This document shows positions 7,712-58,143 of a stretch of DNA of 64,000 bases, one piece after another; position 1 is the first letter of the stretch, and each line of letters starts with the position of its first letter. Source of the DNA: an uncultured Candidatus Micrarchaeota archaeon. Lineage in GTDB: Archaea > Micrarchaeota > Micrarchaeia > Anstonellales > Bilamarchaeaceae. The position numbers were made by a program, and so were the translations under genes. The stretch spans positions 43,735 through 107,734 of the forward strand of contig CAWDQD010000013.1 of assembly GCA_963804385.1 (NCBI GenBank), written 5' to 3'. Under the pieces are notes generated by a model, which was not told where the DNA came from, made no database searches, and saw nothing but the letters and a program-made list of their open reading frames with translations.

Positions 7712-7758
7712 GCCTCTACTAACATATACGTAGTTTATAAACGTTTTTTCGGGATGCT
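7664..7758. repeat. Copy B of the promoter + signal-peptide module (see 125..229)
   Basis: Direct sequence similarity to 125..229, including the TATA-like tttataaac and the start codon context. Confidence 0.75.
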
Positions 7759-10476: not shown

Positions 10477-10841
10477 TCAAACCGGGCGCGCATCAAAGCG
10501 GTATCGGCATAATCCCGAAAGCTGGGGGTTCCAACCACAGCATGATGATCCCTTTGGCCGAAGGCATCAACATCTCCAACGTAGGCACTGTGAGATTGAG
10601 GACGTTCTGCAATGACAATAGTGCGTCGCTCGTGTTGGACCTCAAACGCGTGGACGGGACCAAGCCCGAGGGACGCGGGACCATAGAGATGACCATGGAG
10701 TGGAAAGATCTCGATTACATGCTCGCGGAAGATTTCGAGGTGTCCTTCGTGAACGACTCCCATGCGGAAAGGTTCAGGCTCGAGCGCATCGGAAGAGAAA
10801 GGATGCTCGGCGAAAAGAATGAAGAGCCCGCGAAAAACTAA
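10473..10841 (+). CDS. Small conserved hypothetical protein, family member 3
   Basis: ATGA overlap with the preceding gene. It contains MMIPLAEGINISNVGTVRLRTFCNDNSASLVLDLKR, the same motif as the other two members. Confidence 0.55.
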   Translation: MIKPGAHQSGIGIIPKAGGSNHSMMIPLAEGINISNVGTVRLRTFCNDNSASLVLDLKRVDGTKPEGRGTIEMTMEWKDLDYMLAEDFEVSFVNDSHAERFRLERIGRERMLGEKNEEPAKN

Positions 10842-12181
10842 ACGTTTCCGGCTGCACGCTGGACCACTTCGTTCAATGCCGGGTGGATGTGTATCGTCCG
10901 CAGTATGTCGTTGATGTTGCATTTCCCGGCCTTCATCGAGACGAGGACCTCGTGTATCAGGTTCGATGCCTCGGGCCCCATGATGTGGCAGCCTAATATC
11001 TTGCCTTCGTAATCCGCCAGGAATTTCACGAACCCGTTCTTTTCCCCCATGGCCTCGCCCATCCCCGTATCCGCGTAATTGTACCGGCCGACCATGTGAT
11101 CCACTTTCTTCTCCTTGAGCTCCTGCTCGGTAGCTCCGACCCCGGCTATCTGCGGGTAGGAGAAGACTGCATGCGGCATCGCCGTGTAATCCACGGGGTG
11201 CCGATGAGCCGGAGTGAGAAGGGCGATCGTCACATATTCCGCTTCCAGGTTCGCGGAGTGCTTGAACTGGTATTTGCCTGCGATGTCCCCCAGCGCCCAG
11301 ATGCCCGGGACGTTGGTCTCCATGTACTCGTTGGTCTCTATGAAACCGGCCTTGTTCGTCTTGAGGCCTGCTTTGGCGACTTCCAATATGTCCGTGTTCG
11401 GGATCCTCCCTGTCGCTATGAGCAGGTCCGTGCCTTCCACCGATGCGCCATCGCCATGGACGACGATGCGCGAGTTCTTCATCTCCACTTTCTTGGCAGT
11501 GAATTTCAGGCGCACATCGTATTGCTTCGAGAACAGCTCGGTGAAACGCTGCGATATCTCTTCATCCTCGTCAGGAAGCAATCGCACGTTGCGCTGGAGT
11601 ATCGTCACCTTCGATCCCATCGAGCCGAAGAAATGCGCAAGCTCGCACGCGATGTATCCGCCGCCGATTATGATGAGCTCCTTGGGCAGCTGCTCGAGCT
11701 TGAGCGCCCCGTCGCTCGTCATGTACTTGACCTTGTCCAGCCCTTCGATTGGCGGGATCGACGGACGCGTGCCTGCAGCGACCAGTATCTTTTCCCCCAT
11801 GATGGTCTTGCCGCCCACTTCCAATGCCTTGGCTCCGATGAATTTGGCGCGGTCCTTGAAGAGCGTCGGGTTGCTGGCTTTCCTGAGGCTGTCCTCGATG
11901 TTCTTGGAATCCGTGTCCACTGCCCGGGCGCGTGCCATCGCTTTCTTGAAATCGACCTTGACCGAACCGACCGTTATGCCGAATTCCTCGGCGTGCTTTA
12001 TCGTCTGCATGACGTCTGCCGAGTGTATCAATACTTTCGTAGGAATGCAGCCCCGGTTGAGGCACGTCCCGCCTAACGGGCCTTCCTCCACTATTGCGAC
12101 CTTCATGCCGTTCGCGGCCGCTGTCGCTGCGACATCCAACCCTGAACCCGAACCGATGACTATGAGATCGAATTTTGACAT
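10838..12181 (-). CDS. Class I FAD-dependent pyridine nucleotide-disulfide oxidoreductase (dihydrolipoamide dehydrogenase / glutathione-reductase-like)
   Basis: N-terminal GSGSG dinucleotide fold, redox-active disulfide GGTCLNRGCIPTK, second GGGYIACE NAD(P) fold, and C-terminal HIHPALNE His-Glu dimer-interface motif. Confidence 0.85.
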   Translation of the reverse strand: MSKFDLIVIGSGSGLDVAATAAANGMKVAIVEEGPLGGTCLNRGCIPTKVLIHSADVMQTIKHAEEFGITVGSVKVDFKKAMARARAVDTDSKNIEDSLRKASNPTLFKDRAKFIGAKALEVGGKTIMGEKILVAAGTRPSIPPIEGLDKVKYMTSDGALKLEQLPKELIIIGGGYIACELAHFFGSMGSKVTILQRNVRLLPDEDEEISQRFTELFSKQYDVRLKFTAKKVEMKNSRIVVHGDGASVEGTDLLIATGRIPNTDILEVAKAGLKTNKAGFIETNEYMETNVPGIWALGDIAGKYQFKHSANLEAEYVTIALLTPAHRHPVDYTAMPHAVFSYPQIAGVGATEQELKEKKVDHMVGRYNYADTGMGEAMGEKNGFVKFLADYEGKILGCHIMGPEASNLIHEVLVSMKAGKCNINDILRTIHIHPALNEVVQRAAGNV

Positions 12182-17864: not shown

Positions 17865-17874
17865 TATACTTTTC

Positions 17875-17972
17875 TGAACTATATGGTTCACTTTTCTATA
17901 CTATATGGTTTATTAATTTATACTATGAACTATATTTGTGAACTATATGGTTCAAATATTTGAACTATTGGG
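17875..17972. promoter_or_regulatory. Cluster of TGAAC-N6-GTTCA operator-like repeats at the HEPN-MNT promoter
   Basis: tgaactatatggttca occurs perfectly at 17875-17890 and 17939-17954. Partial copies are at 17897-17912 (tatactatatggttta), 17926-17938 (tgaactatatttg) and 17961-17972 (tgaactattggg). Confidence 0.55.
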
Positions 17973-18468
17973 AAAGAAGAGCACTTCGATCGTTTTACGA
18001 TACTTCCTCAAGCACCCTACAGAAGAGGCGTATGCCGCCCAGCTCGGAAAGAAGCTGAAAATCGCGAGAACGAGCATTTTGGATGCATTGGCCGTGCTGC
18101 AAAAAAGCCAGTTGATAGGACTGAAAAATATTGGGAGGACAAAACAGTACTTACTGAAAAGAGAGGATGCACGCGTCAAGCAACTCAAAATCATCTATAC
18201 AGTCGACAATCTACTGTCGATGCTCAAAGAAATTGAAGGGGTGGAAGTATATCTTTACGGATCGGCAGCGCGCGGCGAAGATACTGAGAAAAGCGACATA
18301 GACATTCTTTTCATGGGAGAGCGCCCGAAAGACGGACTGCTGGAAAATATCCAAAGCGAAGAGAAGATCAAGCCGATTTTCCTCACTTTCCTGGAATATT
18401 CCTCTTTGGCCAGGAAGGACAAACCTTTTTATGAGAGGATTGAAAAGGACAAGATAAGGCTGATATGA
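17947..18468 (+). CDS. Minimal nucleotidyltransferase (MNT) with an N-terminal winged-helix domain; antitoxin-type partner of HEPN
   Basis: LYGSAARGEDTEKSDIDILF (GSxxRG...DxD pol-beta NTase motif). The N-terminal ~90 aa is wHTH-like. First ATG at 17947. Confidence 0.8.
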   Translation: MVQIFELLGKKSTSIVLRYFLKHPTEEAYAAQLGKKLKIARTSILDALAVLQKSQLIGLKNIGRTKQYLLKREDARVKQLKIIYTVDNLLSMLKEIEGVEVYLYGSAARGEDTEKSDIDILFMGERPKDGLLENIQSEEKIKPIFLTFLEYSSLARKDKPFYERIEKDKIRLI

Positions 18469-18890
18469 TGGACCTAGAACAATTGGTGGCGGCAGGACTT
18501 ATCCATAAGGTCGTGCCTGCGAAAGACCTCGCGGAGAAAGAGTTCCATGAAGCCGATTACGATATTGAACGTGCCAAGGAAGCCCTAGAAAGCAAAGATT
18601 ACAAGTGGTCCATAGTCAAGGCGTATTATGCCGTGTTCCATTCCGCCAGGGGAATCATGTTCCTGATGGGATACCGTGAAAAATCGCATTTCGGAGTCGG
18701 AGAGTATCTAGGCATATTATCCAAGGAAGGGAAACTGGAAAGCAGATATGCACAGGACTTCAAGGCGGCGATGAGCGCTCGGCAGGCCGCGGATTACAAT
18801 TACGATTATTCGAAAGAGAAGGCTGAGATGGTCGTTTCCATGGCGGAAGAATTCCTGGAGAGGATGGAAAAATTAAAGACGGCATTGTGA
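18465..18890 (+). CDS. HEPN domain protein (toxin-type partner of MNT)
   Basis: ATGA overlap with the MNT gene. About 140 aa, helical, with MSARQAADYNYDY, typical of the HEPN family partnered with MNT. Confidence 0.8.
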   Translation: MMDLEQLVAAGLIHKVVPAKDLAEKEFHEADYDIERAKEALESKDYKWSIVKAYYAVFHSARGIMFLMGYREKSHFGVGEYLGILSKEGKLESRYAQDFKAAMSARQAADYNYDYSKEKAEMVVSMAEEFLERMEKLKTAL

Positions 18891-22407: not shown

Positions 22408-22501
22408 GCCTCAGTAGTGTAGAGCACTTTCCAGTGCGCACGATGGTTCAGCATACGAGACTGTCACTCTCGCGACCCGGGTTCGAATCCCGGCTGAGGC
22501 G
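22408..22501 (+). tRNA. tRNA-Asp (anticodon GUC) with a ~20-nt insertion (putative non-canonical intron) in the D-loop
   Basis: Acceptor GCCTCAG/CTGAGGC with discriminator G. D stem GTGT/GCAT. Anticodon arm CGAGA-CTGTCAC-TCTCG. T arm CCGGG-TTCGAAT-CCCGG. The D-loop is 30 nt (22421-22450) instead of about 8-11 nt and contains the hairpin GCAC-tttcca-GTGC. TATA gtttataata lies about 30 nt upstream. Confidence 0.65.
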
Positions 22502-22572
22502 CTTTTTGTTTTTCCGCGCGATGACTACAAAACAGACGCGACTTTTATAAAGAATAGGCGTATGCTATCATA

Positions 22573-23340
22573 ATGAATTTCAATCTGCATATCGACGAAT
22601 ATGCTGATAGATACAAAAGTAGACCGCAGCTAATCCGAGCACTCACCGAAGATTGGTTTTCCGATGAGATGTATTGCCCCAACTGTCTTTCCGAAGTCGA
22701 ACAATTTCCTGCAAATTCGAAAACAAAGGATTTTTTCTGTTCAAACTGCGCCCATACGTTTGAACTCAAGAGCCATGCCGCAAATTTCCCTAGGACTATC
22801 CCCGATGGGGCGTATGAAACATTAATTGCGAACATTCAATCAAACCATGCACCAGATTTTTTCTTCCTTTGTTATGATGCAAAATGGCAAGTGTCTGATT
22901 TGTTTCTCGTACCCAGATTTTTCCTGAATCGCTCGGTTATTGAAAAACGTCCGCCATTGTCTAGTACAGCAAGGAGGGCAGGTTGGGTCGGGTGCAACAT
23001 TAAACTTGATAGGATTCCTTTCGCTGGCAGGATCGATGTTTTGAAGAATTACACTGAGACGAAACCAAATGACGTGCAAAAGAAATACAAAAAAGCAATT
23101 TTTCTGGATGAGAAAGATATTTCGCAAAAAGGCTGGTTTTCAGATATGCTACGTTGCGTACAGACTTATCATAACACTTTCAGTCTGGAACAGTTTTACC
23201 ACGATTTCGAAGATGAATTACAGGGATTACATCCAGATAACAGACATCTTAAGGACAAGATTCGCCAGCAGTTGCAGGTTCTTCGTGATAAGGGCTTCTT
23301 ACGGTTTTCTGGACGAGGTACATACGTTTTGTTCAAGTAA
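22573..23340 (+). CDS. DpnI-like methyl-directed (G-m6A-TC) type IIM restriction endonuclease
   Basis: Colinear with my recollection of DpnI. N-terminal ...RALTEDWFSDEMYCPNCLSE...DFFCSNCAHTFELKSH, then IPDGAYETLI, PLSSTARRAGWVGCNIKLDRIP, and a C-terminal winged helix KDKIRQQLQVLRDKGFLRFSGRGTY. The gene is visibly AT-richer than its neighbours. Confidence 0.8.
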   Translation: MNFNLHIDEYADRYKSRPQLIRALTEDWFSDEMYCPNCLSEVEQFPANSKTKDFFCSNCAHTFELKSHAANFPRTIPDGAYETLIANIQSNHAPDFFFLCYDAKWQVSDLFLVPRFFLNRSVIEKRPPLSSTARRAGWVGCNIKLDRIPFAGRIDVLKNYTETKPNDVQKKYKKAIFLDEKDISQKGWFSDMLRCVQTYHNTFSLEQFYHDFEDELQGLHPDNRHLKDKIRQQLQVLRDKGFLRFSGRGTYVLFK

Positions 23341-39845: not shown

Positions 39846-40829
39846 TTATCTCCTGATCGCTTTCGAGACCAGTTCTTCCAGGGTGCGCGTGGCGTTCAGG
39901 ACGTCCGCTCCTCCTGCTTCTACGAGCGCCGCGATCTCTTCCCTGACCTTCGCGAGCAGGCCGTCCAATCCGTCCGCTGCGACCGGAAGCTCGAGAGTAG
40001 TCTTCGGGGTAGAAACCGGGGTGCGTTGCGCCATCACGGTATTATCATTAGCCAATGAGGGAGCGCTGAGGAGTTCCCGGATCCTGGGGGTGTCCGCTCC
40101 GGGCACTTCCACAACTACCCCGAGCCTTTCTGATGGCCATGCATAAGCTCCGATGCTGCGCCCTCCGCTGCGTATCATGAGGCCCACATAAGAGTTCTGG
40201 GTCAGCCTGTTGAACTTCCTGGCCCCGGGTGCGTTGCTCACTACCGGCCCCTGCGGGACAGTGGTGTCATGCGGTATGTACCACCCGTCTTTCTCCGGGA
40301 AATCCGGGACGATTATCAGCCTATCGTCAGGGATGCGCAGCTCTATCTCTTTTATCGCTCTGAAATCCGCGCTCAGCAGGGGTTCGATGCCGTGTTTTGT
40401 TATTATCTCCCGCAGCGTCCGGGTTTTATTGTCGAACGTGTACGCGATGTCCGCGGAAGTCAGGCCAACGGCCACGAGCGCGACGTCCTTTTCGCCTTTG
40501 GCGCTGCCGGTATCGAGGACGACTTTCGGCGCGCCTTCGACCGAGAATACGATGTGCTTGCCCAATTTGGTTCCGGGCGCTTCGTACGCTATGGAGGCGT
40601 CGACCGCGAAGGAGGGAAGCTCCAACCGGCCCGGGCCCGGCGCGAGTGCGGCGTCGGCGACCTTGGGGGAGAGCAACTTGAGATTGGTCCCGTACTTGGT
40701 ATTGAATGATTCCACGAACGGATGCGCGTGGAAAAGCGCTATGGTATGGTTCGCCCTCAAAACCACGAGGTTCCTTATCCTGCCCTCGGCACGCACGCTC
40801 AGAATCTTGTTTCCATGAATAGCATCCAT
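39846..40829 (-). CDS. Hypothetical protein, DGWY-motif family (member 3)
   Basis: MDAIHGNKILSVRAEGRIRNLVVLRANHTIALFHAHPFVESFNT is colinear with member 4. The core is DFPEKDGWYIPHDTTVPQGP...GAYAWPSERLGVVVEVP. Confidence 0.6.
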   Translation of the reverse strand: MDAIHGNKILSVRAEGRIRNLVVLRANHTIALFHAHPFVESFNTKYGTNLKLLSPKVADAALAPGPGRLELPSFAVDASIAYEAPGTKLGKHIVFSVEGAPKVVLDTGSAKGEKDVALVAVGLTSADIAYTFDNKTRTLREIITKHGIEPLLSADFRAIKEIELRIPDDRLIIVPDFPEKDGWYIPHDTTVPQGPVVSNAPGARKFNRLTQNSYVGLMIRSGGRSIGAYAWPSERLGVVVEVPGADTPRIRELLSAPSLANDNTVMAQRTPVSTPKTTLELPVAADGLDGLLAKVREEIAALVEAGGADVLNATRTLEELVSKAIRR

Positions 40830-40916
40830 AATCACACCTGATTACTTTTCATGACAAACCCTTTTTAAATACACGTTTTTGTCCATTTATAGCGACTAAT
40901 AAAAGGACCGACGGGA

Positions 40917-41798
40917 TCAGCCTCTTCCGGTCGGCGGGTAACCGAGGCTTCCGACTTCCTGGTTGAACAGGCTCAGCACCTTGCTGATCTCCGCGGAGGC
41001 CATGCGGACTCGCGAAGCTCCGAAAAGAGATTCTATCTTCTCCACGTCCTTGTCTGGCACCTCGGCCACCACTGCGAAGAGCGTGGAGGCAGGAAATACC
41101 CCGATCAAAGAGTCCTGGTTCTTCTGGGTGCCGTAGCGGACTATCGGACCGACATAAGAGGTGAGGTTCGTCCTGTAGATGAATCTGGCTTCCGGGCACT
41201 TTATCACATCTGCGCCGGAGGTGACGCCGGTCCCGGCATGGATCATGTGGTAACCGTTCTTGGCCGGGAATCTCTCCACCAGCGTCAACCGGTCATGCGG
41301 GATCAGCAGCTGTATCTCGGTGACCGCTTTGAAATCCGCGCTGAGCATGGAATCGATGCCTTTGGCGTCCAGGAGCTCCTGCAGCGACCTCGCCCTGCCG
41401 TCTACGGTATACGCGATATCGGATGCGGCCAGGTTCGTGGCCACGAGCGCGGCGTTCTCCGCTCCTTCATATTTCCCGGTGGCCATGACCACTGTAGGGG
41501 CGGTGAGATCTGAGAAGACGACATGCTTCCCGAGCTTGGTTCCGGGCTTCTCATAAGCGATGGCTCCGTTGACCGGGAACGCGAACGACCCGATATTCTC
41601 GGTGACGAGCGCGACGTCGGCCACGAGGTTGGATATGACTGCGAGGCTCGTCCGGTTGTCGGTGTTCAGCGATTCCAGCAGCGGATAGGCCTCGAAAGGC
41701 CTCACCGAGCGGTTTCCTTTCACTATGAGGAGGTTCTTCGTCTCGCCTCCGACCTGCAGTTTCAGCAGCTTGTTTTCATAAGGTTGAGCGACAGCCAT
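40917..41798 (-). CDS. Hypothetical protein, DGWY-motif family (member 4)
   Basis: Trimmed to MAVAQPYENKLLKLQVGGETKNLLIVKGNRSVRPFEAYPLLESLNT. The core is RFPAKNGYHMIHAGTGV...FPASTLFAVVAEVP. Confidence 0.6.
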   Translation of the reverse strand: MAVAQPYENKLLKLQVGGETKNLLIVKGNRSVRPFEAYPLLESLNTDNRTSLAVISNLVADVALVTENIGSFAFPVNGAIAYEKPGTKLGKHVVFSDLTAPTVVMATGKYEGAENAALVATNLAASDIAYTVDGRARSLQELLDAKGIDSMLSADFKAVTEIQLLIPHDRLTLVERFPAKNGYHMIHAGTGVTSGADVIKCPEARFIYRTNLTSYVGPIVRYGTQKNQDSLIGVFPASTLFAVVAEVPDKDVEKIESLFGASRVRMASAEISKVLSLFNQEVGSLGYPPTGRG

Positions 41799-41949
41799 GT
41801 TTGCACCTAGATCATACGTGCGCAGTACTATTTTTAAATTTACTTTTTTATACATTTATAGCAACTTTATGGTTACATTCGGAGACGGACAGAAATCATA
41901 TGCAATGGAAAATCCGGAACCGGATTTTGAGAAGATTTTTTAACAAAGC

Positions 41950-44029: not shown

Positions 44030-44770
44030 CTAGCTTTTAAAAGTTTTCAGGAGCCGCGCTATCTCCAGGCACTCGTCTTTGGTCAATGTCCTGACCCGGC
44101 GTTCCCTGAAGGCCCCGAGCTGCTCCAATTCCTCGGGCTTGAATTTGGAATCTATGAGAGCGCCGCGAACCAGCTTGTTCCTGTGCGAGAAAAGAGATCG
44201 TATGACATCCTCCTGGAACTTATCCAGGCGGATGCCTGTAGGCGTCAGGATTATTATCGCGGAATCCACTTTGGGGACCGGGCGGAAAAGGTGGCGGGGC
44301 ACTATCCGCTCGAGCTTCACCTCGAACGCGAGCTGAGCCGTCACGCTCAGGCGGCCGTAATTCTTCTCCCCGGCTTTCGCTACCATCTTCTGCGCGAACT
44401 CCTTCTGCACCATCAGCACCGCGCGCTCGAACTTCAATGGGGCGATAGTGAAGACGATATCGGATGATATATAGTATGGGATGTTGCCGATGACGATGTC
44501 GCACGCGGGCGGCTCCGCTTTCAAAAAATCCCCTTCGACTATCTCGGCCCTCCCTGCGAATTTTTCCTTCAATAGGGAAGCGAACCTGGAATCCTTCTCC
44601 ACGGCGATCATTCTTCTGGGTTTCAGGGCGAGCACGGCCTCTGTCAGCCTGCCATCACCGGGGCCGATCTCTAGGACTGTCTTCCCTTGCGGCTCCGCGA
44701 GCTTCGCCTCCAGCGCGAGGATGTTTTTATCTTCTAAGAAGCATTGGCCGAGGGATTTCTTGCGCTCCAT
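44030..44770 (-). CDS. rsmA: 16S/18S rRNA (adenine-N6,N6)-dimethyltransferase (KsgA/Dim1)
   Basis: LGQCFLEDKNIL, VLEIGPGDGRLT (SAM motif I) and VIGNIPYYISS. Confidence 0.88.
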   Translation of the reverse strand: MERKKSLGQCFLEDKNILALEAKLAEPQGKTVLEIGPGDGRLTEAVLALKPRRMIAVEKDSRFASLLKEKFAGRAEIVEGDFLKAEPPACDIVIGNIPYYISSDIVFTIAPLKFERAVLMVQKEFAQKMVAKAGEKNYGRLSVTAQLAFEVKLERIVPRHLFRPVPKVDSAIIILTPTGIRLDKFQEDVIRSLFSHRNKLVRGALIDSKFKPEELEQLGAFRERRVRTLTKDECLEIARLLKTFKS

Positions 44771-44827: not shown

Positions 44828-44875
44828 CTACTTTAGTCAACTTTTTATAACTTTCTAAACAATATGATATCCATG
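44828..44875 (+). promoter_or_regulatory. Conserved promoter module, copy 1 (CTACTTTAGTCAACTTTTTATAACTTT...ATG)
   Basis: A near-identical ~48-bp element also occurs at 46001, 47188 and 48357. The TATA box TTTTTATAA lies about 25 nt upstream of the ATG. Confidence 0.7.
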
Positions 44876-45997
44876 GGAAGGTCATTATTCTTATTGCCCG
44901 CAGCAGGCAACATTTCATTACGAGCCCAGATTCAGAGGCTGCGTGATGGATTCGGGCATGACAGCCTCAAGGTCGAGGGCCCGTTCGCGGACAAGGACGG
45001 CGCTGTCGCGGAACTCGTCGAGCATGTGCGGGCCAGGGCCAGGGGAGGCGGGATCTCCGAGAGCGACGCTCTCATGTGCACGCTCCTGCCGCAGGATATC
45101 CTGCCCGAGGGCTATCCGAAAGAAGAAGCCTCGATGCTCGAGGTCCCCTTCGTCCTGAAGCATCAACATATGGGCGCGAAGCGCGAATACCCGGAGAGCG
45201 CAGGGGAGATAGCCTCTGTCGACGCTCTCGCGTTCGGCCAAGACGCAGCGAGGCCGGTGACCCCGACGGGTCTGACAGTGCTCGGCGTGTCCGTCCTGAG
45301 GAGGCTCGGGGTGGAATGCTATTACTCGACATACACGTGCTACGTGGACGAAGAATCCTCCGGAAAGGTGGAGTTCGTGATGCCGATTATCGCCGCGCCT
45401 AAAGTCAATGGCTTGCGGATGATATCGATGTGCCCGATCCCGGCGAGCACGCTCTCTTCGAGCCCTCCGCACCTGGAGGTGCTGGATGATGACGCCCTGC
45501 TTTCGGCCATCAAGCTCGAGAACGCGTACCTGCATGCCAAGGCGCTCATGCTGGATATCGCTGGCGGCAGGCCCGGATCCGGCCTTGAGCGCGTTCTGCG
45601 GGCCATGCAGATAGGCCATACGCTACACGAGGGGAAAACGATCTGGGCTGTGCGGGATGCACAGGAGGATGTCGGGAGCGCCAAGGAGATCCTCGGGCCC
45701 GGCACGGATCTGGATAGCCTGAGGGTGAGATACGAGAAGGACGTCGTGCTGACCTTGACCGAACCCCCGCGCCATATCTTGAAAGCCGCTTCGGTGATGC
45801 TTCCGGAAGATATCGCGCAGGGTGTCGCTTCCTTCGTGGAGGCCGAAGACAAGATGGCCGGCCTCTTGGATTTCCTTGATACGGTCTCTTGGCACAACGC
45901 CATACCCGCGTTCAATAGTTATCTGAAATCTACCTCGACCATGAACGAGCATATGCACACCGGATCGGAATGCGAACGCATGGGGACGGGGAATTGA
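44873..45997 (+). CDS. Hypothetical protein, tandem paralog 1 of 4 (YPESAGE / IGHxxH / NEHxHxxxEC family)
   Basis: Start set to MGRSLF by analogy with the other three. Motifs: YPESAGEIAS, LGVSVLRRLGVECYY, MQIGHTLHEG, MNEHMHTGSEC. Confidence 0.7.
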   Translation: MGRSLFLLPAAGNISLRAQIQRLRDGFGHDSLKVEGPFADKDGAVAELVEHVRARARGGGISESDALMCTLLPQDILPEGYPKEEASMLEVPFVLKHQHMGAKREYPESAGEIASVDALAFGQDAARPVTPTGLTVLGVSVLRRLGVECYYSTYTCYVDEESSGKVEFVMPIIAAPKVNGLRMISMCPIPASTLSSSPPHLEVLDDDALLSAIKLENAYLHAKALMLDIAGGRPGSGLERVLRAMQIGHTLHEGKTIWAVRDAQEDVGSAKEILGPGTDLDSLRVRYEKDVVLTLTEPPRHILKAASVMLPEDIAQGVASFVEAEDKMAGLLDFLDTVSWHNAIPAFNSYLKSTSTMNEHMHTGSECERMGTGN

Positions 45998-46000
45998 AAG

Positions 46001-46047
46001 CTACTTTAGTCTACTTTTTATAACTTTCTAGACAATATGATATCATG
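46001..46047 (+). promoter_or_regulatory. Conserved promoter module, copy 2
   Basis: ctactttagtctactttttataactttctagacaatatgatatcATG. Confidence 0.7.
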
Positions 46048-47184
46048 GGAAGGTCAGTTTATCTCATCGCTCCGGCTAATGCCAGGTCCATGCACGCGCA
46101 GCTGCGCAGGCTTAATGACCAGTTCGGGGAACAGAATCTGAAGCTGGAGGGCCCGTTCGCGGACAAGGACGGCGCGATCGCCGATATCGCGGACCGCGTG
46201 CGGATGGTATCTCGGTTCAACAGCATCGATCTCATAAACGCCACCATGGTCATGCTCAAGCCGCAGAACAAGCTGCCGAAGGACGAGCAGCCATCGCTGC
46301 TCGATGCGCCGTTCATCGCCGACTCCCTTCCTCTTGACGGGTGGCAGAGCTATCCCGAGAGCGCCGGAGAGACCGCTTCGCGCGGGGCGGTGGAATACGA
46401 AGGAGGCTGGGCGAGGATCGCGGAACCTACAGACCTCAACGTGCTCGCGGTGTCCGTCCTAAGGCGGCTCAAGGTGGAATGCTATTTCGCCATGGCGGTC
46501 TGCCGCATACCTGACGAGACCGTCACCAGGGCCGGGATTCAATCCGGAGGCATAATCTTGCCTGCGATCATCTGGCCTTCCGGCAGCGAGACCAGGACAT
46601 TCTCGATCATACCGAAGGACAATGACATCCTCGCGGCTTCTTCGTCCACCTCGTTCGAGGCCATGGACGACGACGCCATCCTTTCGCTCATCACGCTCAA
46701 GAACGCGCACAAGCACGCCAAGTCGCTGATGGCGGACATAGCGAAGCGACAGCAGGCATTCGAAGGCGAGAGGCCGCTCAGGTGCATGGAGATAGGGCAC
46801 ATGGTCCATAATGCGGTATCCCTGTGGACCCTTCCCGAAGCGCAGGAGGACATCGGACGCGCGAAGGGCATGCTCGGACCCGGCAAGCTCGAGGGCATCG
46901 AGAGCGTCAGGGAGAGGATCGGCCAGAGCCTCGTGCGGACGATCACCGACCCGAAAACCCATGCAATGGCGGCCGCGGCTGTGATGCTCCCGGAGGATTT
47001 AAGGCTGAGGGTGCGAGGATACGCCGAGGGCAAGACCAGTATGAACCTGCTGAAGTTCCTGGAAACGGTCTCGAACCATCCGGCCATGTCCCCGTTCCGG
47101 GAATATCTCTCGCTGTCGTTCGGGATGAACGACCATCTCCACCACGCCTCGGAATGCAAGGCCAGCAAAGGCGCGACCGCTTAG
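46045..47184 (+). CDS. Hypothetical protein, tandem paralog 2 of 4
   Basis: MGRSVYLIAP. Motifs: YPESAGETAS, LAVSVLRRLKVECYF, MEIGHMVHN, MNDHLHHASEC. Confidence 0.7.
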   Translation: MGRSVYLIAPANARSMHAQLRRLNDQFGEQNLKLEGPFADKDGAIADIADRVRMVSRFNSIDLINATMVMLKPQNKLPKDEQPSLLDAPFIADSLPLDGWQSYPESAGETASRGAVEYEGGWARIAEPTDLNVLAVSVLRRLKVECYFAMAVCRIPDETVTRAGIQSGGIILPAIIWPSGSETRTFSIIPKDNDILAASSSTSFEAMDDDAILSLITLKNAHKHAKSLMADIAKRQQAFEGERPLRCMEIGHMVHNAVSLWTLPEAQEDIGRAKGMLGPGKLEGIESVRERIGQSLVRTITDPKTHAMAAAAVMLPEDLRLRVRGYAEGKTSMNLLKFLETVSNHPAMSPFREYLSLSFGMNDHLHHASECKASKGATA

Positions 47185-47187
47185 CAA

Positions 47188-47234
47188 CTACTTTAGTCAA
47201 CTTTTTATAACTTTGTTATCAATAGGATATCATG
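47188..47234 (+). promoter_or_regulatory. Conserved promoter module, copy 3
   Basis: ctactttagtcaactttttataactttgttatcaataggatatcATG. Confidence 0.7.
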
Positions 47235-48356
47235 GGAAGGTCAGTGTACGTCTTGCCTCGTGCAAGAGATAAGCCGATAAGCGACCAGTTGCGCAGGCTG
47301 AGGGACGAGTTCGGCCATTGCAGCCTGAAGCTCGACGGCCCGTTCGCGGACAGTTATGATTCGGTAGCGAAAATAGTGGAGCATGTGCAGCGAAGGATGA
47401 GGAGCGAGGGGATGGACGAGGTGAGCGCCACTGTGCTTACGCTCTTGCCCCAGAACCTAGTCCCTGGAGATAGCCTGCTGTCCGGCAGCTCGATGCTCGA
47501 TGTCCCTTTCATCCTGGACATGCAGCCCGGGATGGTGCGGGGATATCCTGAAAGCGCGGGGGAGGCAGCGCTGGTCCCGTCCATCGGATTCCAAGGAGGC
47601 CTAGCCAGGGAGATTGATCCTTCCAGCATCACGATCCTCGCGGTGTCGATGCTCAGGAGGCTGGGGAGAGAATGCTATTTCTCGATATACAATTGCGAGT
47701 CGAGCGCGACGGACGAGACACACGATATAGACATGAACGTGCCGGCGATCCTCTTGCCTGAGGATAGGGGCATGAATATGGCTTCCGTGGTCCCGATGCC
47801 GATTGTATCCAAAACATCGTACCCGCCGTTCCTCGAGGTGGTGGACGAGGACGCGCTCCTCTCTGTCATCAAGCTCAATAACGCGTACCAGCACGCGCAT
47901 GCCCTGATGGCCGACATGGCGGGTCATGGCATCAAGTCCTACGGCGAACGCACGAGCAGGTCTGTCCGGATCGGGCACGAGCTCCACGCGGGAATATCAG
48001 CCTGGACCGTCTCCGAAGCGAAGGAGGACATCGAAGACGCCGCGGGGATGTTCGGGCCGGGCAACAGGCTCTCCAGCATCAGGGAAAGCGTCGAGCAGTG
48101 CATCGTGCGCATCATGACCACGGCTCCGTTACATGCCATGGCTGCGGCTTCCGCCATGCTTCCGAAGGAGATCGTGGGGGAAATCGAGATGTTCGTAGGG
48201 TCCCAAAGCAAGAAGGTGGACTTCTTCCAGTTCCTGGATAGCCTTTCAGACCACCCGTCCATAGCGCAGTTCAAGGAGTATTTCAGGTCGACGTTCACGA
48301 TGAACGAGCACATACACCCTGTCGCTGAATGCAGAAGCATCCGTGGGGACAATTAG
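47232..48356 (+). CDS. Hypothetical protein, tandem paralog 3 of 4
   Basis: MGRSVYVLPR. Motifs: YPESAGEAAL, LAVSMLRRLGRECYF, VRIGHELHAG, MNEHIHPVAEC. Confidence 0.7.
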   Translation: MGRSVYVLPRARDKPISDQLRRLRDEFGHCSLKLDGPFADSYDSVAKIVEHVQRRMRSEGMDEVSATVLTLLPQNLVPGDSLLSGSSMLDVPFILDMQPGMVRGYPESAGEAALVPSIGFQGGLAREIDPSSITILAVSMLRRLGRECYFSIYNCESSATDETHDIDMNVPAILLPEDRGMNMASVVPMPIVSKTSYPPFLEVVDEDALLSVIKLNNAYQHAHALMADMAGHGIKSYGERTSRSVRIGHELHAGISAWTVSEAKEDIEDAAGMFGPGNRLSSIRESVEQCIVRIMTTAPLHAMAAASAMLPKEIVGEIEMFVGSQSKKVDFFQFLDSLSDHPSIAQFKEYFRSTFTMNEHIHPVAECRSIRGDN

Positions 48357-48403
48357 CTACTTTAGTCAACTTTTTATAACTTTGTAATCAATATAATATC
48401 ATG
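48357..48403 (+). promoter_or_regulatory. Conserved promoter module, copy 4
   Basis: ctactttagtcaactttttataactttgtaatcaatataatatcATG. Confidence 0.7.
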
Positions 48404-49519
48404 GGATTATCAGTCTTACTCGCGCCTTCTCCGAATAAGGATATGAAGCGCGCGCAGATGACCGTGGTGAATGCGCAGCTCGGGCCCGGGGCGGCGCTCT
48501 ACGGCCCTTTCTCAGACAAGGACGGCATGGTCGAGGAGATCGCGCGCAAGGTGCTCGGATCCGGCGGACGCGATCTGCTGGAGGCCACCGTGCACGCACT
48601 CCGGCCCCAGGACCTGCTTTCCCTCAATTCTCAGAAACGCTCGATGCTGGACGTCCCGTTCATACTGCCTGGCGGGATATGGCTGTGCCCGGAAAGCGCG
48701 GGAGAGACGGCATCGGCCGATATCGTGGAATACGGCAGCGCGGAGGCGAGAGAGGCGTCGGTCGCCGCGCTCACCATGCTAGCCGTCTCCGTGCTCAGGA
48801 GGCTCGGAGTTGAAAGCTATTTCGCGCTTTACAATTACGGGGGGCGCCCGGTCGACGAAGAGCTTAGCAACCGCCATATCCTGTTCGTCAGCCAGACAGT
48901 GCCGGTGATCATTGCGCAAGCCGGCCCGCAGACCAGGATCGGATCGGTGCTTCCGGGTGGATTGAAGTCCTTCCTGGGCATCCCGCCCGAGGCCTTCGAG
49001 GTGCTGGACGAAGCCGCGCTCCTCTCGCTCATCAAGATCCAGAACACGTACGACGATGTGGAGGCCCTCATGGCGGACATAGCGGGAAGCACTCCGGAAT
49101 CCGAAGTGGAACGGACTGTCATCTCGATGATGAGGTCGATGCAGATAGGGCATCTGCTGCACGATGGCGGGAATCTCTGGACCCCGGACGAGGCGCAGGG
49201 GAGCGCCACCTGCTCCACCAGACGGGATGTACCCAGGAGCGTCAGGCTGGCGGTGGAGGATGGGATCGTGCATACCATAACCTGCCGCGGCTGCCATGCT
49301 GCCGCAGCCGTGTCGATTATGCTCCGGCAGGAATCCGCTGATGAGCTTTTCGAAGAGGCTGGAGTGGCGGGCCACGACAACGACCTGACCGAGTTCCTGC
49401 GCGCCGCCCCGGACTCGGCGGAGATGCGCCCGCTCAAGGAGTACCTGGGGTCGGCTTTCATGATCAACAACCATATCCATCCCGAGTCGGACTGCAAGAC
49501 CGGCCATGGGAAGAATTAG
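48401..49519 (+). CDS. Hypothetical protein, tandem paralog 4 of 4 (most divergent)
   Basis: MGLSVLLAPS. Motifs: CPESAGETAS, LAVSVLRRLGVESYF, MQIGHLLHDG, INNHIHPESDC. Confidence 0.7.
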   Translation: MGLSVLLAPSPNKDMKRAQMTVVNAQLGPGAALYGPFSDKDGMVEEIARKVLGSGGRDLLEATVHALRPQDLLSLNSQKRSMLDVPFILPGGIWLCPESAGETASADIVEYGSAEAREASVAALTMLAVSVLRRLGVESYFALYNYGGRPVDEELSNRHILFVSQTVPVIIAQAGPQTRIGSVLPGGLKSFLGIPPEAFEVLDEAALLSLIKIQNTYDDVEALMADIAGSTPESEVERTVISMMRSMQIGHLLHDGGNLWTPDEAQGSATCSTRRDVPRSVRLAVEDGIVHTITCRGCHAAAAVSIMLRQESADELFEEAGVAGHDNDLTEFLRAAPDSAEMRPLKEYLGSAFMINNHIHPESDCKTGHGKN

Positions 49520-49623
49520 AGAGTTTCCCGTTTTTCCATCGCCAGCAGCGGGCTCTGCGGACTTGAATATAAAATTATAGAAATGGCAACAAATTTAAAA
49601 ATGATTTGCAATATCATAAAAGC

Positions 49624-51084
49624 ATGAGTACTACTACACCGAGTTATATCGAGATGAGCAAGGATGGATCGCAGACGACCTGCAAAATAGACCTCGGACG
49701 GGAGGTCCAGCAGCCGACCAGGATGGACCCGCGAAGAAACGATATATACTCCTTTGGCGGGCTGGTGGCGAAGCTATACGACAGGTACGATGTCTCGTTG
49801 CTCATCGGGGAGATCTTCGGCAAGAAGGCGTTGGATGTTGCCGAAGTCGAACCGAATTGCGCTGTATATAGAAATAAGGGCCAGTTCGGAGAGATAAGGA
49901 GCCTCGATAACATTGCCACAGAAATCCGCTTCCAGGTGGATGGCGCCCTCATCCTAGTCGTGTATGAGACCGAGAATTCAAGATCGAGATATTATTGGGA
50001 AAATTCTAGCAATGACGGGGAAACCAGGGCAAGGCAGGTCATCACGATAACCGCCAGGGATGACTTGATCGCGGGCATGGTCGCCCATCCCGAATTCACG
50101 TATGTATGCGATTTCCTCAGGACTCAACCTGCTTCGGAATACAAGCCGAGAGTGCAGGAGTTCAAGGTCGATTTGGGAAGAGCGGTTTATCAGCTGATGG
50201 ATGGGGGAAAGTTCGGCCAATCCGCAGCCTATGGTGATGTCGCCCTGCTGATGGGGAAGATATTCGACGAAAGCGTGTTCCGCAGCGCGGTGGCCATGAC
50301 TCCGCAGCATGCCCTCAGGAGCAATAAGAGGATGGTGGCCGCTTCGGCGGAATACCAAGGGTTAGCGATAAGACAGGAAGCGCCCAGGGAGCGCGTCATC
50401 GAGACTTCACGATTCAGCGATTGGAACCTCATCCGGGGGATCGAGTTCCTGGTAGGCGATAGGAAGATCAGCGTCAGATACGAGACAGCATTCAAGGTCG
50501 GAGAGCCCGAAGAACTTCCTGCAGAAGACGCCGCGGCGAGGGATATTATCACCATCAACGGCCCTAAGGACCTTGTCGATAGGATTTCGGCTCATGCGGA
50601 AATCGCATCGATCATAGATGGATTGAAGGCCAGGGATATCTCCGCTGTCGAATCAAAAGTCAGGGCAAAGACGATTGCGCCAATCCCGCCCGTAAAGGCG
50701 CCGCGCAGCGAAGGCCCGGGGTTCCCGAGGCGCGGTGGAATACGCGAGGGCGCTCCTGACGGGCAACCCAGTTTCACCCGCAATGGAATAAGCGTTCCAG
50801 CTAGGTTCAGGGATGATCATACCCTGCACACCAGCGGATTCACAGACGATGTAGGCGGCAGGGAGGGCCCCGGGTCCATGAGGCGCTATTACGAAAGGAG
50901 GGACGATAATAAGCGGCATTTCGGAGTTCCTGGATACCAGGACCAGTTCATGAGGGCGCCGCCGAGGTTCAGGAAGCCCGAACCTCAACCCAAACCTGCG
51001 GCTAATGCCGTTGAAGGACTCGCGAGGCTTACAATGAAGCAAGCCAGGCCGGGTTACGATAGGCTCGGCAGGCGCACACGCTAG
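49624..51084 (+). CDS. Hypothetical protein with an internal domain duplication and an Arg/Gly/Pro-rich C-terminal tail
   Basis: Trimmed to the first ATG (MSTTTPSY). The two ~160-aa repeats begin KIDLGREVQQ... and FKVDLGRAVYQ.... Each ends with (I)ITI(T/N)(A/G)..DL..(M/I).AH.E. The C-terminal ~140 aa is rich in R, G and P (PRRGGIREG, RRYYERRDD, PPRFRKPEPQPKP). Confidence 0.6.
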   Translation: MSTTTPSYIEMSKDGSQTTCKIDLGREVQQPTRMDPRRNDIYSFGGLVAKLYDRYDVSLLIGEIFGKKALDVAEVEPNCAVYRNKGQFGEIRSLDNIATEIRFQVDGALILVVYETENSRSRYYWENSSNDGETRARQVITITARDDLIAGMVAHPEFTYVCDFLRTQPASEYKPRVQEFKVDLGRAVYQLMDGGKFGQSAAYGDVALLMGKIFDESVFRSAVAMTPQHALRSNKRMVAASAEYQGLAIRQEAPRERVIETSRFSDWNLIRGIEFLVGDRKISVRYETAFKVGEPEELPAEDAAARDIITINGPKDLVDRISAHAEIASIIDGLKARDISAVESKVRAKTIAPIPPVKAPRSEGPGFPRRGGIREGAPDGQPSFTRNGISVPARFRDDHTLHTSGFTDDVGGREGPGSMRRYYERRDDNKRHFGVPGYQDQFMRAPPRFRKPEPQPKPAANAVEGLARLTMKQARPGYDRLGRRTR

Positions 51085-51167: not shown

Positions 51168-52298
51168 ATGGCAGCAGGGAAGGATATCCACTTGGCGTCG
51201 GAGCAGAAGATCTACCCCAATCATTTCAGCTTGAATATCCCTGGGATTTACGAGGGCGTTTTCGATGTCGAGTTCTTGCACCTGAGGTTCACGCAGAAGC
51301 TGAAGAACAGCGGCTATAGGGTATACCTGAACATAGAGAATGACAGGGGGAAGAAGACGACAGAACTGACCTATGTTGAATCCGGCCCGAAGCCACCCAG
51401 AACCAAGAGATATTCCATATCCCCTTCCGGCGTCGAGGGATACCATCTGGGAGAATTCGTGCGGCCAGGCGATAACAAAGTGTATATCGAAGCTATAGCT
51501 AAGGACGGGACTAAAAAATCAAGCAAAGGCGTGACATTCCTCAATCCTGGATCCACTTTCATGACCAACGGGGTCCGGTTCGTGTTCGAGGATCCGGAAT
51601 CCTATGACAGGTATGGGACGGGGTACCTGTCGGAATTGACCCGGATAATATCCGCCATGAACATCTTCATGGAACCTGGTTTCAAGGTCGAGGGAATCAT
51701 CCTGCAAAAGGCGCCCGAAGCCAAACCGGGCGACAGGTCAAAAGCCGAAGAGGGCAGCCGGCAAAATTATACGGTCGATGCCAGACCCGGATACAGGTCG
51801 ATAATGATGGACGAGAACGCGCTCGGCGATTACCTCATATCCCGTTTGACGGTTGTCCACGAAGCCGCGCATCACTTCCATGTCCAGATACAGGTGAAAG
51901 ACAGGCAAAAATGGGCGTCTTTCGTGAAATTATTCGAAAAAATGGATGAGGCGTCGCATAAGCAGTTCATGGTATTCGAACCATTCGCGGAGCACCGCTA
52001 CGACCCGACGCTCCCCAAAAGTTTCGGCCACCCGCACGATAAGCCGGAAGAGCTGTTCGCAAGCGCGTCCACAGTGCTGAAATATTTCGGAAACGGGTTC
52101 GTCAAGCAGGTCGAAGAGATGCTGAGGAATACGAATGCATCGGACAGGGCGATGGTGAGGCAGAGCGTGCTTGAGGTCGCAAGGGCGGTCGTGAATATGT
52201 ACATGGAAAACAAGAACTGCCCTAAAAACTTCTTCCACCCCGAACTACTCAAATTCATCGGCATGGAACAGGGCAACGCGATGAGATTGAAACAGTAA
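51168..52298 (+). CDS. Hypothetical protein with an HExxH motif (putative metallopeptidase-like)
   Basis: 376-aa ORF. RLTVVHEAAHHFHVQIQ contains HEAAH, and ELFASAST lies downstream. The gene is bounded by the 28-bp direct repeats. Confidence 0.6.
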   Translation: MAAGKDIHLASEQKIYPNHFSLNIPGIYEGVFDVEFLHLRFTQKLKNSGYRVYLNIENDRGKKTTELTYVESGPKPPRTKRYSISPSGVEGYHLGEFVRPGDNKVYIEAIAKDGTKKSSKGVTFLNPGSTFMTNGVRFVFEDPESYDRYGTGYLSELTRIISAMNIFMEPGFKVEGIILQKAPEAKPGDRSKAEEGSRQNYTVDARPGYRSIMMDENALGDYLISRLTVVHEAAHHFHVQIQVKDRQKWASFVKLFEKMDEASHKQFMVFEPFAEHRYDPTLPKSFGHPHDKPEELFASASTVLKYFGNGFVKQVEEMLRNTNASDRAMVRQSVLEVARAVVNMYMENKNCPKNFFHPELLKFIGMEQGNAMRLKQ

Positions 52299-56563: not shown

Positions 56564-57544
56564 TCAAGAGTGCGTGGGATTATAAATTCCAGAAGTGCGG
56601 GTAGTCAACGGGTCATCTCCTCTTTTCTTTTCGCTCCAGAATTTCAGATAGATAAGCGCCTTCGGCGCGATGATTTTCAGTGCACTAATCTGCTTTCGAT
56701 CCATAACGCCCTTTCGCTGCAATACCCGCTCTGCTTCTTTGAGCTTTTCCTGGTTTCCCGAATCGGAAAGCACTACTTTTTCGATATCGTAGAATCCATT
56801 GTCCATATCGGCTAGCAATAGCAATGCCTTGGCAGCCATGGTGGCGAGTTCCTGCCTTTTGATCTTGCCCTTGGCGAGGAACTCCTCGAAACTGCCGAGT
56901 GCTTTGGGCGGGATGAAGAAATCCGGTAATGGAGTGACGTCTATGCACTTCAGCAAGGCAGATTGGACGCTCTGAACGCACTGCATCTCGCTGAATCGTG
57001 TTTCTCTCAATTTGTTTTGGTCTGATATGATATGACGCCAGTCACCCCGCATATGGTTCAGATCAACTCCCAGCTCCAGCAGGCAATCGATATCGAAAAT
57101 ATCTTTGATAATCTGGGTGGGTTCAATCTCAAGCCGTCCTATTGTACCGAAGGCGAGTGATGAAAGCTTTGCAGCCAGGAAGTAGCACTTCTTGGGGATA
57201 CGTACCATCGTATCATCAATCTTGTGCGTTTCAGTTTCTGGAATGTCAAACCTCCCGATGTCGAGTTTCACCATCACATCATCTTTAGAGATGCTGTAAA
57301 AGAGAAAATTCTGAGACCGGCTATACCGTTCTGTCACCGCGTACCCTGCATCCTTGAGGCTTTTGATAAGCGCTCCCACATCTCCAGGATAAGAGATGTC
57401 CAAATCGATGCTCAGCCGCTTTGGCTTTTCGAACAGAGCCTGTATCGCGCTTCCACCTAGAAACACTATCCGAGGCTCTATCTTCACGAGCAGTGATAGA
57501 ACCCTGAAGACGGTCCTGCTCCTTTTCTCAAAATCCTTGTTCAT
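56564..57544 (-). CDS. AbiEii/AbiGii-like nucleotidyltransferase toxin (DUF1814)
   Basis: FLGGSAIQALF...RLSIDLDISY (GGxA...SxDxD NTase motif), about 326 aa. The gene is visibly AT-richer than its flanks. Confidence 0.7.
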   Translation of the reverse strand: MNKDFEKRSRTVFRVLSLLVKIEPRIVFLGGSAIQALFEKPKRLSIDLDISYPGDVGALIKSLKDAGYAVTERYSRSQNFLFYSISKDDVMVKLDIGRFDIPETETHKIDDTMVRIPKKCYFLAAKLSSLAFGTIGRLEIEPTQIIKDIFDIDCLLELGVDLNHMRGDWRHIISDQNKLRETRFSEMQCVQSVQSALLKCIDVTPLPDFFIPPKALGSFEEFLAKGKIKRQELATMAAKALLLLADMDNGFYDIEKVVLSDSGNQEKLKEAERVLQRKGVMDRKQISALKIIAPKALIYLKFWSEKKRGDDPLTTRTSGIYNPTHS

Positions 57545-58143
57545 GTAATCATCTTTACAAGCTCTACGTTTCTGCGACCGGCTCTGTAATGCCTTTCGTC
57601 TATTTTCAGATGGGTCTTTTTTGATAACTCATATGCGAAGATACTCACGAACCAGCCCAGGTACCTCCTCAGGGAATACCGGTACAATTCATTGAAATGT
57701 ATAGGTTTGCCGCCAGTAAGATAATACTCCCACAAATCAAGTACGTCTTTCAGGGAGAGCGGTAATATCTCGTTTTTCGCGTAGTGGAGAAGGTCCACAA
57801 GGCATTTCTCGAGTTTGGGTTGGACTCCCTCGACCTCTCTCCTGTTCCTGGCCTCGCTCGCCACAATCACGATGCTCGCCTCATTTTCCGGTCTCGTAAT
57901 CTTGAGAACTGGTTTTTTTATGCCGTAATAGACGTCATAACGGGTGTATGCCTGAGCGACAAGTCCGGCCAGTGAATCTACGGCCACCGGATCGCATTCT
58001 ATGAAAATGATGTTCCTCCTCCAGTTATGCATGAATGGGATGAATGGGGAGAGGTCCCAGATCACGAAACCTAGGGCGGGCATCTCCTTATGGATGATTT
58101 TTGTTATTTTTTCGGTTTCCTTTCCGAAGGTCATACTTGTCAT
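57541..58143 (-). CDS. Upstream partner of the AbiEii-like toxin (putative AbiEi-type antitoxin/regulator)
   Basis: ATGA overlap with the toxin gene, about 200 aa. The position and size fit AbiEi, but I recognised no definitive motif. Confidence 0.5.
   Translation of the reverse strand: MTSMTFGKETEKITKIIHKEMPALGFVIWDLSPFIPFMHNWRRNIIFIECDPVAVDSLAGLVAQAYTRYDVYYGIKKPVLKITRPENEASIVIVASEARNRREVEGVQPKLEKCLVDLLHYAKNEILPLSLKDVLDLWEYYLTGGKPIHFNELYRYSLRRYLGWFVSIFAYELSKKTHLKIDERHYRAGRRNVELVKMIT

Follow-up and report, generated by a model that had tools for sequence, protein, structure and literature searches.

Archaeal genes read from leaderless mRNAs canonically carry a TATA box centred about 26 nt before the transcription start, a transcription factor B recognition element (BRE) directly 5' of that box, and a start codon at the position where transcription is expected to begin. 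Proteins of the transglutaminase-like/papain-like superfamily (PF01841; for example 3isr, factor XIII and TG2) share a helix bearing an LRRLG-type sequence followed by beta-strands, and erythrocyte protein 4.2 (7uzs) is an inactive member of this fold without the catalytic Cys. The locus described here recalls the first system in its promoters and, with less certainty, the second in its proteins. It is an array of four tandem genes, W1 to W4, in a 64,000-nucleotide stretch of DNA (the window) from an uncultured Candidatus Micrarchaeota archaeon (contig CAWDQD010000013.1, positions 43,735 to 107,734). DPANN archaea, Micrarchaeota included, possess many lineage-specific genes of unknown function that are thought to underlie their symbiotic lifestyle. 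Our best explanation, to which we give slightly better than even confidence, is that an orphan gene specific to Micrarchaeota is present here in four tandem copies, each an independent transcription unit. The promoters and genes of the array are as follows, with related loci from other genomes designated by L numbers.

44828 to 44872, plus strand: promoter of copy 1, with the upstream block CTACTTT, the BRE-position block AGTCAAC, the TATA box TTTTTATA at 44842-44849 and the proximal sequence CAATATGATATC
44873 (or, from an upstream ATG, 44864) to 45997, plus strand: W1, an open reading frame of 374 aa counted from the MGRS ATG; match to the family hidden Markov model (HMM) at E = 9e-125
46001 to 46044, plus strand: promoter of copy 2, with a single A-to-T change in the BRE-position block; it takes up nearly all of a 47-nt spacer
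46045 to 47184, plus strand: W2, 379 aa, orthologue of copy 1 of L083 (55% amino acid identity) and the copy used for the structure model
47188 to 47231, plus strand: promoter of copy 3, with 27-mer and TATA box
47232 to 48356, plus strand: W3, an open reading frame of 374 aa
48357 to 48400, plus strand: promoter of copy 4, with 27-mer and TATA box
48401 to 49519, plus strand: W4, 372 aa, orthologous to L083 copy 2 and the most divergent of the four

The four open reading frames (44873-49519) are intact, colinear and on the same strand, and the repeat unit of 1163-1187 bp is composed of a 44-nt promoter and a coding sequence, with spacers of 44-47 nt between the genes. W1 most probably starts at the MGRS ATG at 44873, leaving the in-frame ATG at 44864 unused, because all family members begin with MG[KR]S directly after the promoter. 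A first-pass annotation, made by a model from the letters alone, had described four tandem paralogues of about 375 aa with less than 50% identity, each behind a near-identical upstream element, and had judged the regulatory DNA to be far better conserved than the proteins. All of this holds: the proteins are 372-379 aa long and 38-46% identical, and the codon-aligned coding DNA is 53-60% identical (44-53% at third positions), whereas the 44-nt promoters are 86-95% identical in pairwise comparisons, as counted by hand from the printed sequences. The motifs it listed are likewise present across the copies (YPESAGE, which is CPESAGE in W4, LAVSVLRRLGVECYF, EVLDDDALLS, IGHxLH and MNxHxHxxxEC), except that AQED(I/V)G is confined to W1 and W2, being altered in W3 and gone in W4.

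The similarity of the promoters breaks off sharply 5' of CTAC. The 27-mer CTACTTTAGTCWACTTTTTATAACTTT occurs four times in the window (at 44828, 46001, 47188 and 48357), once before each gene, where shuffling the sequence 100 times gave a chance expectation of none. Counted from the ATG, the element consists of CTACTTT at -44 to -38, AGTCAAC at -37 to -31, the TATA box at about -30 to -23, and CAATA at about -13 to -9 within an A/T-rich proximal part. The TATA box TTTTTATA matches TTTWTAWA at eight of eight positions; in each of the four copies 22-23 nt (23 nt in copy 1) separate its end from the ATG. Like a canonical BRE/TATA leaderless promoter, the element thus has its TATA box centred about 26 nt upstream of the start site that the spacing predicts, with a 7-nt block adjoining it at the BRE position and the ATG at the expected start. 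Unlike the canonical promoter, it carries the extra, family-specific block at -44 to -38, and the whole of it is nearly unchanged across genomes in which the proteins are only about 30% identical. Elsewhere in the window, 21 genes have a good TATA match, and in 14 of them it lies 21-23 nt before the ATG. We read the core as the generic, optimal promoter of the organism and the -44 to -38 block together with the proximal part as family-specific.

The element abuts the start codon directly and leaves no room for a 5' untranslated region or a Shine-Dalgarno sequence. As the TATA-to-ATG spacing puts the expected start at or next to the ATG, the array mRNAs are predicted to be leaderless and probably are so. 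Each spacer appears to be a complete, compact archaeal promoter and nothing else, and since the spacers hold only a promoter, each gene is expected to form its own transcription unit. W4 is followed, 12 nt beyond its stop codon, by a run of five T residues on the plus strand (49531 to 49535) that may act as an archaeal oligo-T termination signal. After W1, W2 and W3 the sole such run is the one within the next gene's TATA box, which may help to end the upstream transcript. Scans of the window found hairpin terminators no more often than chance, and the counts of bacterial-type promoters and terminators were at chance level.

To place the promoters in a wider context, 20 family promoters from 11 genomes (the window and ten other Micrarchaeota) were aligned, gap-free around the TATA box. 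It is precisely at -44 that information content climbs, from some 0.2 bits to values of 0.8-2 bits, and every one of the 20 has its TATA box 22-24 nt ahead of the ATG. When the window is compared with L083, 39-43 of the 50 positions upstream of a family gene are unchanged, as against 29-30 of 50 for dnaJ, ksgA and a hydrolase gene. The same promoter also precedes the family gene in genomes with a single copy, where the protein is 27-31% identical to the window copies. The window promoters equal the cross-species consensus, as selection predicts, and differ from one another by 0-3 mismatches in a 30-nt block. Since the consensus is kept in 11 genomes among which protein identity drops to about 30%, purifying selection explains most of the promoter conservation, and we take selection on a gene-specific promoter, rather than recent duplication, to be the main cause of the promoter similarity.

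An alternative is that the array evolves in concert, with short gene-conversion tracts homogenising the spacer and the first codons in the absence of any special functional constraint. The window promoters are indeed more uniform than those of L083 and L209: the 27-mer is the same in three window copies and one base off in the fourth, where the L083 and L209 copies differ at 3-8 positions of the 30-nt block. Moreover, W1-W3 share ATGGGAAGGTCA, with AGG (Arg) as third codon, even though W2 is the orthologue of L083 copy 1; the relatives in L083, L209, L002, L084, L210 and L212 have Lys or Asn codons there, and AAA, AAG or AAT is found in all sister genomes. The shared codon and the promoter uniformity make some gene conversion of the promoter and 5' end possible. 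However, the consensus is kept in ten other genomes, including L085, L086 and L087, whose single copies allow no conversion between paralogues, and the segment downstream of the TATA box retains orthologue-specific states, W4 and L083 copy 2 sharing CAATATAATATC. The coding sequences show no sign of recent conversion in their flat identity profiles and saturated synonymous sites, no formal conversion test having been made. We therefore regard concerted evolution as an unlikely general explanation, and selection on the promoter as the better one, to which some local gene conversion in this strain may contribute.

Nor is this a recently duplicated or homogenised array, given the gap between its coding DNA and its spacers. 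Synonymous sites are saturated among W1-W4 (proportion of synonymous differences, pS, 0.50-0.58 by the NG86 method), and in a neighbour-joining tree and by sliding-window identity W2 goes with copy 1 of L083 and W4 with its copy 2. From this saturation and from the one-to-one orthologues of at least two copies in the sister genome it follows that the duplications in the array are old and predate the species splits. The copies of L002 and L084 likewise form one-to-one pairs. A BLAST extension had hinted that L083 copy 1 is a mosaic of W1, W2 and W3, an idea that was rejected when sliding-window identity showed it to be a plain W2 orthologue.

The first-pass annotation also proposed a regulator-binding site upstream of the TATA box. 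In its stronger form this becomes the proposal that the -44 to -31 block is the operator of a dedicated transcription factor and that the array and the 486-aa gene downstream of it form a small regulon. Conservation does run about 7 nt past the BRE position and has a sharp 5' edge, and the block is family-specific: in 569 kb of archaeal loci the relaxed motif TTTNNTNNAYTTTTTATAAC has 24 matches, every one of them before family genes, and the single further match to an exact-motif scan of JGI metagenomes is another family array. Within the block, ACTTTAGT can be read as a weak dyad (ACT-TT-AGT), and the 486-aa neighbour too has an unusually conserved promoter, with a common CAATATCATA just before the ATG. 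Against this, the dyad is both short and imperfect, the promoter of the 486-aa gene lacks the CTACTTTAGTC block, and no transcription-factor gene is a conserved neighbour. The block stands before no other gene, so that no regulon beyond the family was found in the window, the 569 kb of archaeal loci or the exact JGI metagenome scan; a degenerate motif scan of GTDB genomes was uninformative, its matches being swamped by AT-rich bacteria. What stands of the proposal is therefore a -44 to -38 block that is family-specific and conserved in 11 genomes, and what does not is a regulon or a regulator. We hold the operator only tentatively, as a minority view; the block may be no more than one part of a core promoter that is extended and strong.

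Taken together, these features suggest how the array of independent transcription units would work. Selection would hold the promoter at one consensus, also found before family members in ten other genomes, and local homogenisation may add to the likeness in this strain. Each copy would be made as its own leaderless mRNA, with the ATG where transcription should start and the upstream transcript presumably ending in the T-run of the next TATA box. The likely effect would be strong, matched expression of all copies, possibly with a dedicated factor reading the -44 to -31 block. The products are predicted to be soluble two-domain proteins, a degenerate transglutaminase-like domain joined to a helical bundle with a candidate metal site.

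The family is Micrarchaeota-specific and undescribed. A word-indexed profile search with the four copies found ten clusters among 5.8 billion proteins and an exhaustive HMM search 86 clusters (at 50% identity) among 1.84 billion, and all related loci recovered are from Micrarchaeota or unclassified archaeal metagenome-assembled genomes (MAGs). The window's own genes include DnaK, DnaJ, class I LysRS and a KsgA homologue, and its DnaK protein is 80-87% identical to those of Micrarchaeota (DPANN) MAGs. The only named relative is an 'Uncharacterised protein' from the same phylum, VVC03186.1 (UniRef100_A0A5E4LTK6) of Candidatus Bilamarchaeum dharawalense, a full-length family member (P0057; profile E = 1e-60) that differs in being only distantly related to the window copies and has neither annotation nor study. 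No relatives were found in IMG/VR viral contigs, a distant-subfamily search of GTDB gave no match, a GTDB pattern search with the four sequences recovered no family member, and literature searches returned nothing on this family. As the first-pass annotation had said, the family cannot be placed: the four copies have no match in Pfam (E <= 0.1), NCBIfam, PADLOC or PHROGs (single proteins searched), none of all 71 members scanned matches Pfam, and profiles of four or 71 sequences match no PDB sequence. No known enzyme was thus reached by profile search, just as coding identity proved well below promoter identity.

Copy number varies among related genomes. The window has four copies; L002 and L209 have three each; L083, the closest genome, also has three, the third (10354-11441) frameshifted; L084, L210 and L212/L213 have two; and L085, L086 and L087 have one. 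The frameshifted L083 copy could be a real pseudogene. Copies 3 and 4 are split in L088 (3043-5329), a locus that shares 99.9% identity with the window and shows 8 gaps over 15 kb; from the contig name and the gap pattern, the splits are probably assembly indel errors.

The array proteins evolve quickly. Ratios of non-synonymous to synonymous substitution (dN/dS) were compared for syntenic genes of the window and L083, for which dS is similar throughout (0.54-0.98); L088 and L001, which are 99.9-100% identical to the window, are uninformative at strain level. The ratio is 0.39 for W2 and L083 copy 1 and 0.45 for W4 and L083 copy 2, compared with 0.06 for dnaK, 0.06 for dnaJ, 0.07 for ksgA, 0.09 for an AsnC-type regulator, 0.16 for the hydrolase and 0.25 for the 486-aa neighbour. 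Other hypothetical genes nearby are about as fast, at 0.24-0.44. The suggestion that the proteins are diversifying is no more than plausible: dN/dS is raised, but the values lie below 1, and a ratio of about 0.4 indicates weak average constraint and fits relaxed constraint as well as positive selection.

Two further explanations concern the proteins. In one, the paralogues are conflict or interface proteins, for antiviral defence or as symbiont-host effectors, caught in an arms race that would explain both the fast evolution and the variable copy number. DPANN archaea are obligate symbionts, the array orthologues are 50-55% identical between window and L083 where DnaK is 95% identical, and copy number ranges from 1 to 4 with a frameshifted copy in L083. 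Against this, the ratios stay under 1 and are equalled by nearby hypothetical genes, the proteins have no match in PADLOC, PHROGs or IMG/VR viral contigs and no viral fold match in BFVD, they lack a signal peptide or transmembrane segment, and around the array lie syntenic housekeeping genes and no marks of mobile elements. We consider an arms race improbable. In the other explanation, the four proteins are subunits of one hetero-oligomeric assembly whose amounts are kept equal by the identical promoters. The near-identical promoters, the common architecture, the core residues kept in all copies and the persistence of orthologous copy types across species would agree with such an assembly, but a copy number of 1-4 among related genomes, with copies lost or frameshifted, is a poor fit to a fixed stoichiometry and makes it more doubtful still.

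The W1-W4 proteins are acidic (isoelectric point 5.0-6.2), of about 41 kDa, and have no signal peptide and no hydrophobic or transmembrane segment. An AlphaFold2 model of W2, built from a 10-sequence alignment, has a mean predicted local distance difference test score (pLDDT) of 85.5 and a predicted template modelling score (pTM) of 0.87, and consists of an alpha/beta domain (residues ~1-207) and a helical bundle (~209-375). In a Foldseek search of the PDB with this model the top match is 3isr (probability 0.90, E = 0.07), and there are none at E <= 0.001. The list is headed by transglutaminase folds (3isr, factor XIII, TG2, TG3, protein 4.2, 3kd4 and arylamine N-acetyltransferase, NAT), and transglutaminases, 3kd4 or NAT account for more than 20 of the top 50 matches. 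A Foldseek search of BFVD yielded no meaningful match. In addition, the family motif xELTxLAVSVLRRLGVE resembles the transglutaminase motif C..FA.....LR.LGIP. With moderate confidence, we propose that the N-terminal domain has a transglutaminase/papain-type fold that lacks the catalytic Cys, as does protein 4.2. The array proteins differ from the superfamily in having no significant sequence or structure score, in missing both the Cys and the His of the triad, and in the fused helical bundle with its three His and one Cys, which is not seen in the top-scoring transglutaminase-fold matches.

Could the proteins nevertheless be active transglutaminase-like cysteine peptidases or transferases? The predominance of transglutaminase folds in the Foldseek list would favour this, as would an hhalign alignment that pairs LAVSVLRRLGVE with the TG2 helix following the catalytic Cys. 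The residues needed for catalysis, however, are not in place. At position 128, the start of helix 128-141 and the equivalent of the catalytic Cys, the family has L, P, A, I or V and no conserved Cys; the position expected for the catalytic His is Pro173 in 67 of the 71 members, and a possible Asp, D208, is present in 56 of 71 (His and Asp having been mapped by eye). A catalytic Cys at the helix start with His and Asp on the next strands is therefore not what the family has, and none of the 71 members matches PF01841 at E <= 5. We regard an active enzyme of this type as very improbable, and return to the degenerate fold.

Several residues are near-invariant. Among the 71 members R140 is invariant (71/71), C371 is present in 69, and E205, H252, W261, R289, H364 and H366 are each present in 68. 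H252 is absent only in three outliers with a disrupted HxH, and from the coincidence of these losses we argue that the His and Cys residues form one site, which agrees with the metal site that the first-pass annotation had suggested from invariant His, Cys and Glu. Many members also have a CxxCH motif at 302-306 (C302 in 40 of 71, C305 in 27 of 71), an ancestral feature retained by W4 and lost by W1-W3. Thus H252, H364, H366 and C371, joined in many members by CxxCH, probably hold a metal such as zinc. The paralogues do not have the HExxH motif of zincins; their conserved motif is IGHxLH followed by a C-terminal HxHxxxxC, and HEAAH occurs only in the unrelated gene at 51168-52298.

Several points weigh against parts of this account. 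The transglutaminase-fold match is not significant, its best E value being 0.07 and its template modelling scores 0.22-0.28, and the hhalign alignment, made with a TG2 core fragment, covers 16 columns at 2.5% probability and is not evidence. The metal site is deduced from residue conservation, and the invariant R140, E205, W261 and R289 could belong to an active site; this would speak for an enzyme over a binding protein. Likewise the start sites, the monocistronic transcripts and the high expression are all read from sequence, and the AGG codon and the promoter uniformity discussed above stand on the same side of the balance.

What is clear is that the array is not a known enzyme, a recognisable defence system or a mobile element. 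As to the role of the proteins, a non-catalytic, metal-stabilised binding or adaptor protein seems the most likely option, if one that falls short of even confidence. Partner-contact surfaces that diverge between paralogues and between species would account for copy numbers between 1 and 4 as well as for a dN/dS near 0.4. The next option, a possible one, is a metal-dependent enzyme on a remodelled fold. A bolder combination of these elements would make the product a highly expressed, metal-stapled pseudo-transglutaminase for symbiont-host or virus interaction, encoded by a diversifying array that grows and shrinks by duplication of a promoter-plus-gene cassette and is switched on as a whole by a factor bound at -44 to -31; we think this rather unlikely.

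Downstream of the array lies the gene that was proposed, along with others at 49.6-52.3 kb, to form an undescribed system with it:

49560 to 51084, plus strand: gene for the 486-aa neighbour, which starts at the ATG at 49624 and has its own conserved promoter, with TTTAAAAA 22 nt upstream of that codon

The protein is basic (isoelectric point 9.1); it contains two internal repeats, and its last 130 or so residues form a disordered tail rich in Arg and Pro. The gene is rare, five clusters being known. Its promoter is about 82% conserved between species (41 of 50 positions) and its protein 34-53% identical, a pattern like that of the array. Its AlphaFold2 model is poor (pLDDT 57) and the Foldseek matches to it are noise. 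The window, L083 and L209 have the gene directly after the array; L002 has ksgA between the two, L210 and L212 have ksgA and two to four more genes there, and in L084-L087 the gene does not adjoin family members. It is thus a neighbour in one lineage only and separated by inserted genes elsewhere, so the proposed system is not supported. The same is true of the gene at 51168-52298 on the plus strand, which encodes 376 aa with HEAAHHFH and a downstream PEELFASAS and looks zincin-like by eye: among 5.8 billion proteins it matches only itself, and it has no PDB or Pfam match. Sister loci do not have this gene, and no canonical TATA box precedes it at the usual distance. It may have been inserted recently or have arisen de novo.

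On the other side, the array lies beside ksgA (44030-44770 in the window), with which it is divergent in the window, L083 and L209 and convergent in L002, L084, L087, L210 and L212. The array falls on opposite sides of ksgA by lineage, and this points to a small local rearrangement around it. The single-copy members in L085 and L086 adjoin A-type ATPase genes. A functional link of the array to ksgA, AMMECR1 or Memo was considered and rejected, given the variable orientation and the single-copy members beside A-type ATPase genes. The array thus lies in a syntenic housekeeping region with no conserved functional partner and at most a possible link to the 486-aa gene; its neighbourhood bears no mobile-element marks.

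Nothing in the locus overturns expectations. Still, the family stands out for its confident predicted structure, its candidate metal-binding residues, its variable copy number and a promoter conserved beyond the protein. We know of no genetic tools for the phylum Micrarchaeota, and the 44-nt element offers a ready-made, predicted leaderless and probably strong promoter for it, while the protein lends itself to structural and binding studies. Should the -44 to -38 block turn out to bind a factor, it would join the very few regulatory elements known in DPANN; otherwise the locus is no more than a well-documented orphan family arranged in tandem.

Other features of the window were recorded in passing. 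Two genes that lie side by side on the minus strand at 39846-41855 encode proteins of 329 and 312 aa without a Pfam match. Two neighbouring genes of L083 (3102-5005) both match the gene at 39846, with 62% and 32% identity, and the locus therefore has the look of another fast-evolving tandem pair (dN/dS 0.32). Defence or toxin-antitoxin genes are scattered in the window: a DpnI-like restriction endonuclease specific for methylated DNA (22573-23340, plus strand) and an AbiEii and DUF6577 pair (56564-58143, minus strand). An MNT nucleotidyltransferase and HEPN pair (17870-18890, plus strand) is typical of a toxin-antitoxin module, and upstream of it are three or four GAACTATATGGTTC-like dyads that could be an operator. 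Rfam identifies a 119-nt tRNA, probably intron-containing, at 8118-8236 on the minus strand; it is absent from the ARAGORN output, which lists only a tRNA-Asp at 22428-22502. Finally, the minus strand at 278-7783 encodes a 2501-aa protein with five NosD/right-handed beta-helix stretches, probably a giant surface protein.

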